From a virus: a DNA stretch of 64,000 nt. Position numbers and translations under genes: made by a program. The stretch is from the IMG/VR virus record IMGVR_UViG_3300035180_001452, positions 58,381-122,380 of that record. One strand, written 5' to 3'. Below, piece after piece: positions 27,685 through 33,112 of the stretch; within the stretch, counting starts at the first letter, position 1, and the number at the start of each line of letters is the position of its first letter. Under the pieces are notes generated by a model. It did no database searches and had not been told where the DNA came from. It was given only the letters and a program-made list of their open reading frames with translations.

Positions 27685-27825
27685 AGAAAGGCAGTGCAAT
27701 GACTTGACTGCCTTGGATCGCTGATCGCTAGGCTAGTTAATGCTTTAGGGGCAGTATTAACTAGCTAGAGTGCAGCCTTGGTATTAAAGTGTGGCTGCAA
27801 TAGGGCTAACGCCCTTCCTTTTTAT
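27685..27825 (+). ncRNA. Structured ~140-nt module, copy 1, containing the SD + ATG-ACT-TGA minigene (27699..27707)
   Basis: Stems aaggcagt/actgcctt, ctagttaat/attaactag, tgcagcc/ggctgca and gggc-taac-gccc plus T-run; repeated five times. Confidence 0.55.
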
Positions 27826-27875
27826 GCTGAGTGCTTAGAGGACATGAGCCTCTGCACTCAGAAAGGAAGAAGAAG

Positions 27876-28286
27876 ATGAAGTTGTTGATCCGGCTGTTCA
27901 CGATGTATCTTGACTTCCTCCTTAAGAATTCAATGGAGGTAGTTAAGATGGAGGTAGTGGGCGGTAGCTTTGACATCGATTCCGTTCAGGATGGTGTCAG
28001 GCTCTCTGTTTCTGCAAAGCTTACCCAGGAAGGTATGCTTTTGCAGTATGTGTTGGGTTTTAAGGAAAGATACCTAGTAACGACACGTTTGGCAGGTAAT
28101 AGTGGATATGGACATAAGTCAATGGTGGCAAGGAAGCCACATGAGAAGAGAAAGATCCGTCTGGAGAGTCGGCTCCTCCAGACGGAGGATGAGGTCGTTC
28201 GGTTCCTCCAGCCAGGGGGAACCGATGAGGTTTCCGTTGAGGATGCTATGAAGATTCATAGCATCCTTATCTGGCTGGATGAGTAG
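27876..28286 (+). CDS. Cassette protein, family D (136 aa)
   Basis: Paralogue of 30042 with near-identical C-terminus (LQTEDEVVRFLQP...KIHSIL). Confidence 0.8.
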   Translation: MKLLIRLFTMYLDFLLKNSMEVVKMEVVGGSFDIDSVQDGVRLSVSAKLTQEGMLLQYVLGFKERYLVTTRLAGNSGYGHKSMVARKPHEKRKIRLESRLLQTEDEVVRFLQPGGTDEVSVEDAMKIHSILIWLDE

Positions 28287-28383
28287 TTTCGACCAGCCAG
28301 CTTGAGAGGGAGGGGCTAACGCCCCTCCTTCTTGGGCTGAGCACTCTGGGGACATGAGCCCCTGTGCTTGAAAGGAGACAGCG

Positions 28384-28803
28384 ATGCTATATGCTATCGC
28401 TGAGGCGTACCGAAGCATCTTCGGTGCGCCCGTCCACGAGACAATCGTGGACGGTATCCTCCACCAGGCTTTTCTGGTGGGGGATGGTGTGGTGGAGCTT
28501 TCGTTCCACCATACCATGGACAAGATGATGATGTCTATGGTCTTGTCCATTGTTCCGGCCTCGGTCGAGGTCGGATATGATGTTATCCTCAAGGACAACA
28601 TCGTGACTTTCCGTCTTGCCCTTTCCAAGGGCGAGCTTGACTCTGAGGAAGTTGCGCTTAGCGCGCAGCTTCCTTGTGGGGTGCACCCCATCAAGGTGTT
28701 CCTTCCTGGGAAGGAGGGACCTGTTCCCTCCTTCCTCAACCTCAGTGAGGAGCAGCACATGCTCCTCAAGGAGTGGACTAAGAAGTTGATGGGGAGCATG
28801 TAG
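28384..28803 (+). CDS. Cassette protein (139 aa)
   Basis: SD AAAGGAG immediately after the repeat. Confidence 0.75.
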   Translation: MLYAIAEAYRSIFGAPVHETIVDGILHQAFLVGDGVVELSFHHTMDKMMMSMVLSIVPASVEVGYDVILKDNIVTFRLALSKGELDSEEVALSAQLPCGVHPIKVFLPGKEGPVPSFLNLSEEQHMLLKEWTKKLMGSM

Positions 28804-28948
28804 TGGTTTTGTATTACCGGGAAATGAGCTCACATCCCGGTAATACAGACGTAGCTAACTACTAGACTAAGGAGGAGGGGCTAACGCCCCTCCTTCTTGG
28901 TCTGAGTGCTTAGGGGACATGAGCCCCTGCACTTGGAAGGAGAAGGAA

Positions 28949-29269
28949 ATGGAGTTGAATATCGAGCAGATGATGTACAATCTGATTGCGGCCCTGCTTC
29001 CCGGAAACATTTCCGGGATCGATCGGACGCTCCAGATCAATGTCAAGACCATTGATTTGGCGCTCGGAGAGTTCGGTCTCGAGGGGATGCTTACTCTGGA
29101 AATCGTTGAGAATGACAACAAGCTCGTTAAGGTTGTTATTCGATACGAGGAGGGTGAGTACACTCTTGGCATCCGGACCAAGGAGATGCATACGATCCGG
29201 AAGTTCCGGGATATCTCGGTGATCCCCTGGAACACCATCACGGATGAGATCGAGGAGGCTATCAAGTAG
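28949..29269 (+). CDS. Cassette protein, family A (106 aa)
   Basis: MELNIE start and RKFRDISVIPW end match 26441. Confidence 0.8.
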   Translation: MELNIEQMMYNLIAALLPGNISGIDRTLQINVKTIDLALGEFGLEGMLTLEIVENDNKLVKVVIRYEEGEYTLGIRTKEMHTIRKFRDISVIPWNTITDEIEEAIK

Positions 29270-29361
29270 CCTTCTCGACCCCTAAGGAGGAGGGGCTAAC
29301 GCCCCTCCTTCTTGGGCTGAGCCAGAAGAATGTATCTCTGGCTGGAGAGGAGGTGAATAAG

Positions 29362-29520
29362 ATGGATGTTCTCGCTGCTCTTCTGTCAGTCGTGGTTTTC
29401 GTAGCAGTAATGCTACGAGTACTCGGCTGTGCTCAGGAGGAGCATAAGCGGGTGATTACCAGCTCCTTCATCGAGGTTTGCAAGGCGATGAGGGAGGCGG
29501 AGGAGGCGGAGGAGAAATAA
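29362..29520 (+). CDS. Small membrane peptide, family B (52 aa; not in the ORF track)
   Basis: SD GGAGGTG; MDVLAALLSVVVFVAVMLRVLGCAQEEHKRVITSSFIEVCKAMREAEEAEEK, similar to 26900. Confidence 0.75.
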   Translation: MDVLAALLSVVVFVAVMLRVLGCAQEEHKRVITSSFIEVCKAMREAEEAEEK

Positions 29521-29611
29521 TCTCCTCTAGCCTGAGGAGGAGGGGCTAACGCCCCTCCTTCTTGGGCTGAGCCAGAAGAATGTACCTCTGGCTGGAGAGG
29601 AGGTGAATAAG

Positions 29612-29767
29612 ATGACCGTCAAGATTTTCGATGGCTTTAATGCCGTGGTCGATGATGATGGCACCATCATCGGGTTCTATACGGACCCGGGTGTTCTCAT
29701 CGACCTTTGCCTTGACGAGGCTAATAATATTATTGGCTTCGTCAAGGCCAAGGAGGAGGAGAAGTAA
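29612..29767 (+). CDS. Small acidic peptide (51 aa; not in the ORF track)
   Basis: SD GGAGGTG; MTVKIFDGFNAVVDDDGTIIGF...DEANNIIGFVKAKEEEK. Confidence 0.7.
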   Translation: MTVKIFDGFNAVVDDDGTIIGFYTDPGVLIDLCLDEANNIIGFVKAKEEEK

Positions 29768-31280: not shown

Positions 31281-31330
31281 ACTGAGTGTTTAGAGGACAT
31301 GAGCCTCTGCACTCAGAAAGGCAGGAGAAG

Positions 31331-31699
31331 ATGAAGTTTGACGTTGTGGAAATGCTGGCATGGTTTGCCAGCATGTTGGGCGTATCCGCTGATACGTCCA
31401 ACATCGAGACCGGGATCTCTTCTCGGTCTAAGTATGCCTCCATCGATAAGACTATCGATGGGATTGCCTTCTCAATGAAGGCATCAGTGGCTCTGGACGG
31501 AGAGTGGTGTATTCTCGGCATGGTGGCCGAGAACAAGGAGGGTAGCTGTGCTACCCTCTCGGTCTGTGTCGACCGTGACGTTACGGTCGGGATGGAGGAT
31601 GGCAATGGTGTTTACACCGTTGCCATCTACGAGTCGGCTGCTGATGTTCCGTGGGAGGATATCAGCGACAAGGCTAACAAGGTCATCTCTAGCCTGTAG
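31331..31699 (+). CDS. Cassette protein, family E (122 aa)
   Basis: FDVVEMLAWFA and ILGxVAEN shared with 31797. Confidence 0.8.
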   Translation: MKFDVVEMLAWFASMLGVSADTSNIETGISSRSKYASIDKTIDGIAFSMKASVALDGEWCILGMVAENKEGSCATLSVCVDRDVTVGMEDGNGVYTVAIYESAADVPWEDISDKANKVISSL

Positions 31700-31796
31700 A
31701 GGTGGCTTTGGCCTGAGGAGGAGGGGCTAACGCCCCTCCTTCTTAGGCTGAGTGTTTAGAGGACATGAGCCTCTGCACTCAGAAAGGCAGGAGAAG

Positions 31797-32180
31797 ATGA
31801 TGTTTGATGTTGTGGAGATGCTGGCATGGTTTGCTGGCATTCTCCTGCCTGACGCGTACTACCGCGCGTCAGGCGTGGCAACCGGTAAGTCTGATGATTC
31901 TTGCTACGCTGAGACTGGTTATCTCAGCAGCAAGAATAGCGGACTTGCGATCGGTGTGAAGTGCACCTCCTCGTTCGACAATAGCTGGTGGATTCTCGGC
32001 TTGGTAGCCGAGAATCTGGATGGGGAGTTCTTCACGCTGTCCCTGTCATTTGACAGGGGGACTGTCACGTACTCGGTGGAGGATAAGGGGCTTTATTCCT
32101 CCTATGAGTATGACAACATCACTGATGTTCAGTGGGATGTTGTCATTAATGAGACCATTAAGGCCCTCTCTAGGATGTAG
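31797..32180 (+). CDS. Cassette protein, family E (127 aa)
   Basis: Paralogue of 31331. Confidence 0.8.
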   Translation: MMFDVVEMLAWFAGILLPDAYYRASGVATGKSDDSCYAETGYLSSKNSGLAIGVKCTSSFDNSWWILGLVAENLDGEFFTLSLSFDRGTVTYSVEDKGLYSSYEYDNITDVQWDVVINETIKALSRM

Positions 32181-32261
32181 AGAGGGCCTGAGCCTGAGGA
32201 GGAGGGGCTAACGCCCCTCCTTCTTGGGCTGAGTGTTTAGAGGACATGAGCCTCTGCACTC

Positions 32262-32402
32262 AAGGAGGCAGTGCAATGACTTGACTGCCTTGGATTGCTA
32301 GTTGTTAAGCTAGTTAATACTTTAGGGGCAGTATTAACTAGCTAGAATGCGGTTCTAGTGTTAAAGTGTGGCTGCAATAGGGCTAACGCCCTTCCTTTTT
32401 AT
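32262..32402 (+). ncRNA. Structured module copy 4 (minigene 32276..32284)
   Basis: AAGGAGG + ATGACTTGA; same stems. Confidence 0.55.
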
Positions 32403-32450
32403 ACTGAGCATTCTGGGGACATGAGCCCCTGTGCTTGAAAGGGGAGGCAT

Positions 32451-32843
32451 ATGACGCCTCGCGAGAAGTATCTTGCGGGATTCTGGGCGTTGTTTGAGCC
32501 CGTAATTCCCGCAGCCCTCCGGACGGTAGTCCGGAGGACCGTCCGGCTTAGTAAAAGCCGTCAAACGTTTGAGACTGCTCTCGTAGTAGTCTCAATCGAA
32601 GTCGGTGGGCGAACCCTTAGGATGGTTCGACAGCCGATCAAGGACTCCCAAACGGGAGTCCTTGCGAGCAGTGGCTGGAAGATCGCTTGGGTTTTCCAGC
32701 CAGATCCAGAGAATGGAACGTATGTTCCATTTCCCGAGGGCCGGTGCGTTTGGCTGGCCCCGGGATCCGACCAGCCCAAGATCGGGTTGGTCGGGGACCT
32801 TCTCCGGGAGGCGTACGGACTCCCGGAGAGGATCAACCGGTAG
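32451..32843 (+). CDS. Cassette protein, family C-related (130 aa)
   Basis: MTPREKYLAGF, GWKIA and VWLAPG..P.IG motifs. Confidence 0.75.
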   Translation: MTPREKYLAGFWALFEPVIPAALRTVVRRTVRLSKSRQTFETALVVVSIEVGGRTLRMVRQPIKDSQTGVLASSGWKIAWVFQPDPENGTYVPFPEGRCVWLAPGSDQPKIGLVGDLLREAYGLPERINR

Positions 32844-32967
32844 CTTTGTATAAGGAGGAGAAGGCTAGTATTTTCTCCTCCTTATACTACGACTGGTGAT
32901 TTTTTTACCGGGAGGTGTGTTCCGTCAGCTTATGCGTAAGTATAGGCTCGGATCACATCTCCCGGTA

Positions 32968-33112
32968 GAAAGGCAAAAGTAAAAATGACCTGACTACCTA
33001 TTGGTAGCTGGCGCTAGATTAGTTAATACTTTAGGGGTAGTATTAACTATCTAGTGTATAGCTCTAATATTAAGGTGTGGCTGCAATAGGGCTAACGCCC
33101 TTCCTTTTTATA
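32968..33112 (+). ncRNA. Structured module copy 5, most diverged (minigene ATG-ACC-TGA 32985..32993)
   Basis: tagttaatact/agtattaacta stem and gtggctgcaatagggctaacgcccttccttttt end retained. Confidence 0.5.

Follow-up and report, generated by a model that had tools for sequence, protein, structure and literature searches.

Why a phage should set a ribosome-binding site, a start codon, one sense codon and a stop at the head of a folded RNA, and do so five times within a few kilobases, is the question raised by the DNA analysed here. This 64,000-nucleotide stretch (the window) is the last 64 kb of the linear, 122,380-bp IMG/VR virus record IMGVR_UViG_3300035180_001452, of which it covers positions 58,381 to 122,380 (estimated completeness of the record, 79). 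In each of five modules, m1 to m5, a Shine-Dalgarno (SD) sequence is followed by ATG, a threonine (Thr) codon and TGA, together a minimal open reading frame (mini-ORF). To our knowledge, two-codon minigenes are mostly toxic curiosities of phage lambda and of synthetic constructs, and they have no demonstrated role in normal infection; the lambda bar minigenes cause peptidyl-tRNA drop-off. The answer that we favour, with a probability of about 40%, is that the modules specify an early small RNA of the phage whose mini-ORF is a selected ribosome-binding site, and we consider a landing pad for ribosomes likelier than a trap for tRNA.

The motif ATGACYTGA occurs five times in the window, always on the + strand, and a sixth match is found nowhere in the whole record. 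The chance expectation is 1.16, and none of 100 shuffled sequences reached five. However, this statistic overstates independence and the count measures a repeat family, since the five modules are paralogous copies of one repeat, with 100, 90, 89, 83 and 84% identity over about 146 nucleotides (nt). Scanning metagenome contigs with a 20-mer from the hairpin that recurs throughout the surrounding gene array gave 37 stretches, with several copies in four of them (L081, L104, L111 and L112), and three of these contigs (L104, L111, L112) contain four further distinct module copies. Their order matches that of the window: a module of m3 type precedes the same ORF family, and one of m4 type, an ORF and one of m5 type follow each other. 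With duplicates removed, nine distinct copies entered the alignment. A covariance model built from them scores ten complete copies, five in the window and five in the three contigs, at 147-181 bits and an end-truncated copy in L112 at 99 bits, while the next best match across the window and 13 loci reaches 36 bits and the other 59 kb of the record contain no match.

The most conserved unpaired part of these copies is the SD-AUG-ACN-UGA block, in which the wobble base alone varies among all nine. In the 12-mer AATGAC-N-TGACT one column of twelve is variable, the wobble position of codon 2 (T in seven copies, C in one and A in one, encoding Thr in each case), and no other site of the 12-mer is four-fold degenerate. 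The C variant is that of m5, and the A variant belongs to copy L104b and to the partial copy in L112, both of them m5 orthologues with ACA. By comparison, 14 of 15 columns vary in the upstream and SD region and 17 of 21 in the linker that follows. An SD, AUG, one sense codon and a stop are present in nine of nine copies, and TGA does function as a stop in this phage, where it ends 13 of 70 long ORFs. The SD (AGAAAGG or AAGGAGG) lies 7-11 nt upstream of the ATG in three leader contexts that are not homologous to one another, and the sequence of the spacer is free; specifically, AAAGG stands 7 nt away in m1 and m2, AAGGAG 7 nt in m3, AAGGAGG 7 nt in m4 and AAAGG 11 nt in m5. In m1, m2 and m4 the ATG stands behind the same leader hairpin and SD as the neighbouring ORF cassettes (leader A), whereas m3 and m5 have another leader hairpin (TACCGGGA..CCGGTA, leader B) and keep AGAAAGG. 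Leader-B hairpins elsewhere (28815, 33875 and 34412) are not followed by GAAAGG. An earlier note on this DNA, which had drawn attention to the minigenes, was thus right about all five positions and about the synonymous nature of the only change within the 9-mer, to which the relatives add a third Thr variant; it had also recognised that an SD leads each ATG, although the spacing is 7-11 nt and not the 7-12 nt it gave.

Table 1. Features discussed in the text, numbered from the first letter of the window.
Feature	Position	Strand	Details
Module m1, leader-A type	27683-27825	+	SD to end of T-run; 177.3 bits (covariance model)
Module m2, leader-A type	29849-29991	+	179.9 bits
Module m3, leader-B type	31138-31280	+	TACCGGGA..CTCCGGTA hairpin at 31107-31134; 179.5 bits
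Module m4, leader-A type	32260-32402	+	Stronger SD, AAGGAGG; 176.1 bits
Module m5, leader-B type	32969-33111	+	Most divergent; long hairpin at 32906-32967; 147.6 bits
Mini-ORF of m1	27699-27707	+	ATG ACT TGA
Mini-ORFs of the other modules	29865-29873, 31154-31162, 32276-32284; 32985-32993	+	ACT in the first three; ACC in the last
Conserved 12-mer of m1	27698-27709	+	AATGAC-N-TGACT
Leader-A hairpin before m1	27652-27686	+	CTGAGTG..CACTCAG; then SD AAAGG at 27687-27691
Hairpin P0 of m1	27688-27714	+	AAGGCAGT (27688-27695) pairs with ACTGCCTT (27707-27714)
Linker helix Px of m1	27712-27732	+	27712-27716 with 27728-27732; overlaps the 3' strand of P0
Hairpin P1 of m1	27731-27766	+	14-bp stem, invariant core TAGTTAAT/ATTAACTA
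Hairpin P2 of m1	27771-27799	+	TGCAGCC..GGCTGCA and two inner pairs
Intrinsic terminator of m1	27802-27825	+	AGGGC-TAAC-GCCCT, then TCCTTTTTAT
Early cassette array hosting the modules	25953-33686	+	15 small ORF cassettes and 5 RNA modules, all +
Large ORFs of the high-GC island	37027-38595 and 38537-40480		Candidate polymerase pair
TACCGGGA hairpins in the window	28815-28842, 31107-31134, 32906-32967, 33875-33902, 34412-34441, 39241-39263

Downstream of the mini-ORF, the module is a chain of helices that ends in a terminator. Taking P0, P1, P2 and the terminator stem together, 96.0% of 297 pair cells in the alignment hold standard pairs, as against 24-48% when the partners are slid by 1-3 columns, and three pairs have changed on both sides; the covariation score is reached in 5 of 500 shuffles. 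P1 is 96.8% paired, with 10 of its 14 pairs never varying and one pair going from G-U to A-U (variable columns, 4 of 14 and 2 of 14 in its arms and 6 of 8 in the loop); its loop holds GGGG, or GGGA in one of the nine copies. Being nearly invariant in sequence, P1 says little about pairing as such. P2 is 98.8% paired, and 7 of 10 columns vary in its 5' arm and 3 of 10 in its 3' arm; six of nine pairs vary one-sidedly and stay paired through G-U, and one pair shows the series G-C, A.C, A-U. The terminator, AGGGCTAACGCCCT followed by TCCTTTTTAT, combines a 5-bp GC stem with a T-run; a terminator scan found it in all five modules, and none of its 24 columns, T-run included, varies in the nine copies. 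RNAalifold recovered the stems CTAGTTAATRCT/AGTATTAACTAG and TGCAGCC/GGCTGCA, which the earlier note had picked out together with the GGGC-TAAC-GCCC hairpin, and its description of the cassettes as non-coding, structured and terminator-ended is borne out.

A hairpin around the mini-ORF, P0, forms in some copies only. Its stem includes the SD and its 11-nt loop AUG-ACU-UG, with 84.4% of the cells of the helix paired and two pairs changed on both sides. P0 has 8 bp in the five copies of m1 type (in the window m1, m2 and m4, the three in which AGGCAGT had correctly been seen to face ACTGCCT), 5 bp without the SD in two copies of m3 type, and is absent from the two of m5 type. A linker helix, Px, in which bases that follow the stop pair with bases that precede P1, forms in eight of nine copies in two registers, with 5 of 5 pairs in one register in the five m1-type copies and 5-6 pairs shifted by one in m3, its L112 counterpart and L104b; it is poor in window m5. 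Across the module pairing, 31 cells hold G-U and 4 hold A-C, and the opposite strand would by arithmetic be about 87% paired. The G-U excess and the T-run therefore indicate an RNA of the + strand, and the alignment favours a + strand structured RNA as the nature of the modules, with a conserved structure on one strand and an intrinsic terminator at the 3' end, as befits a small RNA gene.

The array around the modules occupies the first 7.7 kb of an island of high GC content, and each ORF unit in it comprises a hairpin on the 3' side with the core GGGGCTAACGCCCC, a leader hairpin on the 5' side, and an SD followed by the ORF. There are 20 GGGCTAAYGCCC hairpin cores, all on the + strand between 26369 and 33676, and 15 leader cores GGACAYGAGCCYCTG; the 15 ORFs fall into a few paralogous families. 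The 3' hairpins of the ORF cassettes hide their pyrimidine tract in the stem, whereas each module has a canonical terminator instead, and a short stem with a free T-run is found in the array only in the modules and at 33663-33678.

Given this anatomy, it is appealing to propose that all five modules belong to a single gene family that specifies a small non-coding RNA, which would be transcribed from the + strand of the array, with a conserved part of about 143 nt and a greater length when the 5' leader hairpin is included. Such an RNA would keep the 5' grammar of the array, a leader hairpin and then an SD, but in place of the protein gene it would present a single-stranded AAUGAC-N-UGACU (the SD-led AUG-Thr-UGA), a fast-evolving linker helix, P1 as a sequence-invariant hairpin with a G-rich loop, P2 as a second hairpin, and last a canonical intrinsic terminator. 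A ribosome would initiate, decode the single Thr codon and terminate before reaching the folded domain. The likeliest use would be to hold a ribosome in initiation at the 5' end, where it may shield the RNA from 5' decay or endonuclease cuts, or perhaps gate the hairpin that sequesters the SD, while P1 and P2 would act in trans, as a decoy for some factor of host or phage or as its binding partner. In Bacillus subtilis, initiating ribosomes at the strong SD of hbs mRNA protect it from RNase J1 and RNase Y (PMC5737220). Of the roles that the earlier note had entertained, that of a ribosome-protected small RNA is viable and the one we prefer. A bolder version, in which the two-codon minigene has been naturally selected as the functional 5' end of an early RNA present in many copies and serves the phage to load host ribosomes so as to park, mark or exploit them, strikes us as rather doubtful.

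Several points weigh against a selected ribosome-binding site. The SD lies inside the 8-bp hairpin in five of nine copies, and when the segment from -52 to +128 is folded, opening the ribosome-binding site of the modules costs 4.5-16.2 kcal/mol (median 11.9), compared with a median of 4.9 for the ORFs. Folding from -52 to +60 reverses the direction, with medians of 3.9 for the modules and 7.8 for the ORFs, and accessibility relative to real ORFs was therefore rejected as evidence either way, since the result flips with the folding window. A scan of 9.5 kb for promoters found 7 sites where 5.6 were expected, none of them at a module, and no sigma-70-like promoter near the modules. The argument from RNase J rests on a distant similarity of the portal protein (about 36%). 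All nine copies come from one phage lineage, so that they offer few independent substitutions. Three of the 15 array ORFs also begin with Met-Thr, and so ATGAC could be a vestige, a point that is adverse or neutral. Finally, coding alone does not explain why TGA is fixed and why AA before and CT after the mini-ORF are invariant as well; the stop is neither TAA nor TAG in any of the nine copies, and TGA ends none of the 15 array ORFs (25998-33565), which use TAG 12 times and TAA three times. A gate operated by stop read-through was considered and rejected, because the frame after TGA is not conserved within the variable linker and ARAGORN finds no suppressor tRNA.

In the main rival the 12-mer is not translated at all but is a sequence-specific recognition element, made of two TGAC half-sites with a 1-nt spacer or acting as a small RNA seed. 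The block would be shown single-stranded, in the P0 loop or an A-rich stretch, and bound by a protein or a target RNA, with the SD merely inherited as cassette grammar. This reading explains the conservation nearly as well as the mini-ORF does: wobble-only variation is equally predicted by the two half-sites, between which the variable base is the exact spacer, the invariant bases reach past the ORF on both sides, the stop never switches to another stop codon, and the block is free of pairing in each of the three module types, as seeds of small RNAs are. However, the 122 kb contain just one further TGAC-N-TGAC, on the - strand at 34273. The phage holds no perfect or one-mismatch complement besides the modules' own opposite strand, and complements with up to two mismatches are no more numerous than the 8-19 per shuffled genome (20 shuffles), so that seed pairing within the phage was rejected, its targets not exceeding chance. 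It is also not evident on this account why an SD should sit at ribosome-binding distance in two leader-B contexts when other leader-B hairpins have none. We regard a recognition element as somewhat less probable than a ribosome-binding site. A second rival, which we consider unlikely, makes the module a cis-acting control of transcription in a long early transcript, either a ribosome-sensing attenuator, as the earlier note had suggested, or, like the put RNA of phage HK022, a pair of hairpins that would make RNA polymerase pass the many hairpins of the array. The array's only canonical terminators are those of the modules and the one at 33663, the modules split the array into blocks, P0 and Px cannot form together in the m1 type, and P1 and P2 together span 69 nt, close to the roughly 70 nt and two stem-loops given for put (PMC9378689). 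The two ingredients of an attenuator, a leader ORF and a terminator some 100 nt downstream, are indeed present, but no antiterminator pairing is kept across the three module types, P0 with its sequestered SD is missing from the m5 type, and two stable hairpins separate the ribosome site from the terminator. The mini-ORF offers a single Thr codon, its wobble base free, and the genes downstream have no relation to Thr; a put-like element would for the most part undo the terminator that lies only 2 nt beyond P2, and no antitermination family of Rfam matches.

A toxic minigene of the bar kind, which would act through drop-off of fMet-Thr-tRNA and sequester tRNA-Thr or ribosomes to shut off host translation, fits the anatomy of SD, two codons and stop, and its five copies lie in an early region; shorter minigenes moreover show more peptidyl-tRNA drop-off and slower termination, and toxicity is described in Pth-defective cells (PMC2490762). 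Yet a tRNA-Thr sink is unlikely because it would hit the phage itself: ACT is its own commonest Thr codon, making up 966 of 1926 (50%) in long ORFs outside the island, and ACC is the commonest in the array ORFs (49 of 103). Across the 122 kb, ARAGORN finds no tRNA gene that could compensate, the wobble base crosses isoacceptor classes (ACT and ACC versus ACA), the SD is sequestered in those copies with an 8-bp P0, and the invariant P1 and P2 are left unexplained. The host shut-off that the earlier note had proposed thus appears very improbable. No more credible is a promoter at this site, with TTGACT serving as the -35 box for a host polymerase of sigma-70 type or the whole 12-mer serving a phage polymerase, so that the RNA would start downstream and lack both SD and ATG. 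TTGACT does fit five of six consensus positions of a -35 box in seven of nine copies, module homology begins at the 12-mer block, a TAnnnT hexamer follows after 19 nt in every copy except m2 and L111a, and RYP and DCDGD motifs are found in a protein of the island. The promoter scan, however, places no promoter at any module, a -10 box is missing at 16-18 nt, the hexamer begins with T, C or A, and a start set by the 19-nt spacer would fall within the invariant 5' arm of P1; the 12-mer is not enriched elsewhere either, with 7 one-mismatch sites against about 7 expected by arithmetic. The overlapping -35 box, which the earlier note had named as the observation that would overturn its proposal, is for these reasons a weak objection. 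Equally remote is an element acting as DNA, such as an operator or a recombination or replication site built from the inverted repeats. The P1 core is invariant in sequence and not only in pairing, and cassette order varies between strains, but G-T is tolerated 31 times and A-C 4 times, every copy has the same strand orientation and closes with a terminator and its T-run, and the arms of P2 diverge asymmetrically.

The favoured small RNA resembles each of the nearest known systems in working principle only. Like lambda bar and the synthetic toxic minigenes, it is phage-borne and SD-led, with two sense codons, the start included, before a stop; it differs in that the mini-ORF is fused to a conserved folded RNA of about 115 nt with its own terminator, exists in many copies, lets the wobble base drift while the rest is fixed, and uses the favourite Thr codon of the phage. 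Among minigenes the shortest give the most drop-off (PMC2490762). The Start-Stop sites of Escherichia coli (yecJ, hslR) combine an SD-like sequence and a start with a stop almost at once; they bind ribosomes in vitro and in vivo, and a regulatory or damage-limiting role has been proposed for them (bioRxiv 10.1101/520783). However, they lie within protein genes and have no sense codon, while the mini-ORF of the module includes one sense codon and stands at the start of a non-coding RNA. The ribosome-dependent 5' stabilisers of Bacillota, among them the STAB-SD of cry genes, protect long mRNAs, whereas in the modules it would be a small structured RNA that is protected. Common to both would be the 5' stem-loop and strong SD at which, in hbs mRNA, a ribosome blocks RNase J1 or RNase Y (PMC5737220). 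The put RNA of HK022, a cis-acting antiterminator of about 70 nt for early operons preceded by terminators, is similar in size and two-hairpin layout (PMC9378689); the module differs from it in the terminator that abuts P2, in its five copies and in the mini-ORF led by a ribosome-binding site.

The pattern of conservation is striking, yet it comes from one phage lineage: an SD-led AUG-Thr-UGA is unchanged but for its wobble base in nine diverged copies, its flanks are free, and the same folded RNA accompanies it every time. If ribosomes bind there, the modules would amount to evidence from nature for phage selection of a minimal cycle of translation on an RNA that encodes no protein, and would provide a small, defined object of about 150 nt for the study of ribosome-dependent RNA protection or of ribosome hijacking. 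Should the mini-ORF be a ribosome-loading head, such minigene RNAs would form a class of phage takeover tools rather than a laboratory curiosity of lambda. If the block is instead a binding motif, the modules would still be an undescribed multi-copy early RNA of a hot-spring myovirus, set in a high-GC array punctuated by hairpins.

Beyond the metagenome contigs described above, the searches for relatives of the modules found none. Neither megablast nor blastn matched the module to cultured phages, and a 26-mer and a 20-mer from its 3' end have 0 matches each in IMG/VR. There, a 16-mer around the minigene has 69 matches, all single and none (0 of 69) with another module motif, and the array hairpin 20-mer has 10, again all single. 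A pattern for P1 is found at at least 65 viral and at least 120 genome loci, with another module motif at 0 of 185 among the matches listed, none of which shows arrayed P1 copies of the kind that CRISPR-repeat mimicry would give. A cassette protein has three metagenome homologues; a protein-based search for related loci found none in metagenome or viral collections, and tblastn found none in cultured phages. Rfam 15 at gathering threshold gave no match over the whole window (T-box, riboswitches, EAR, CRISPR repeats and tRNA-like RNAs included), and the best permissive hits on the modules were CRISPR-DR62 (25.8 of 45 bits, E 7.8) and AniS (21.8 of 50 bits). ARAGORN reports neither tRNA nor tmRNA in the window or the other 59 kb.

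The array itself varies. Between 27600 and 33200, cassette content and order differ between related strains (L112, L104, L111 and L081), and other cassette combinations stand behind the same boundaries in metagenome contigs. Logan contigs from four DNA runs show many skips and back-joints between cassettes, contigs that are short in a region that is repetitive, and one such piece joins an m5-type upstream to TGACTTGACT, a hint only for the same reason. This variation fits recombination at the repeated hairpins, and assembly across repeats could mimic it; reading the module sequence for signs of a mobile element revealed no terminal inverted repeats or target duplications. The loop ACACGAG occurs only in the leaders of m1 (27665-27679) and m2 (29831-29845), while the other 13 leader cores have ACATGAG, which probably reflects shared ancestry of a duplicated unit of leader, module and ORF. 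The ORF cassettes close with a hairpin of about 13 bp, GAGGAGGAGGGGC-TAAC-GCCCCTCCTTCTT (26358-33610), and the pyrimidine tract buried in its stem resembles an anti-SD paired to an SD-like arm.

The phage is a hot-spring myovirus: its genes include those for a tail sheath, a portal protein and a large terminase that bears an intein. Among the sequencing runs listed for the module region there is none of RNA, and the DNA runs are labelled as microbial mat, sediment and hot-spring metagenomes. The closest cultured relatives by portal are phages of Bacillota, namely Moorella phage MTATph1 and the Bacillus 0305phi8-36 group, with about 35-37% identity over two thirds of the protein. The GC content is 0.52-0.55 in a 14.5-kb island (26000-40500) and 0.36-0.44 everywhere else in the record; the island sits between structural genes on the - strand and replication genes on the + strand, and its preferred Thr codon is ACC, with ACT preferred outside. 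Its two large ORFs have no match in Pfam, PHROG or PDB sequence searches, and the first shows an RYP motif with GDCDGD 38 residues further on. Hint or intein-type domains score in three ORFs of the window (17433-19958, 52095-54644 and 58000-61476): the helicase ORF reaches 45.3 bits with Hom_end_hint (cut-off 32.1), an ORF for an ATP-cone class II-like ribonucleotide reductase 43.2 bits with Intein_splicing (cut-off 35.8), and the domain of the large terminase scores under the Pfam cut-offs. About 1.1 kb after the array (33600-34200 and 34640-34700) is non-coding, without an Rfam match that reaches threshold, and rich in hairpins and short repeats, among them a 14-bp hairpin, GCCAAGCAGGACGT..ACGTCCTGCTTGGC, at about 34651-34693. 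Counting both strands, the 122-kb record contains 40 copies of the 8-mer TACCGGGA, where base composition predicts about 2-3; most copies lie within genes, and six sites form TACCGGGA..CCGGTA hairpins, two of them directly 5' of m3 and m5.

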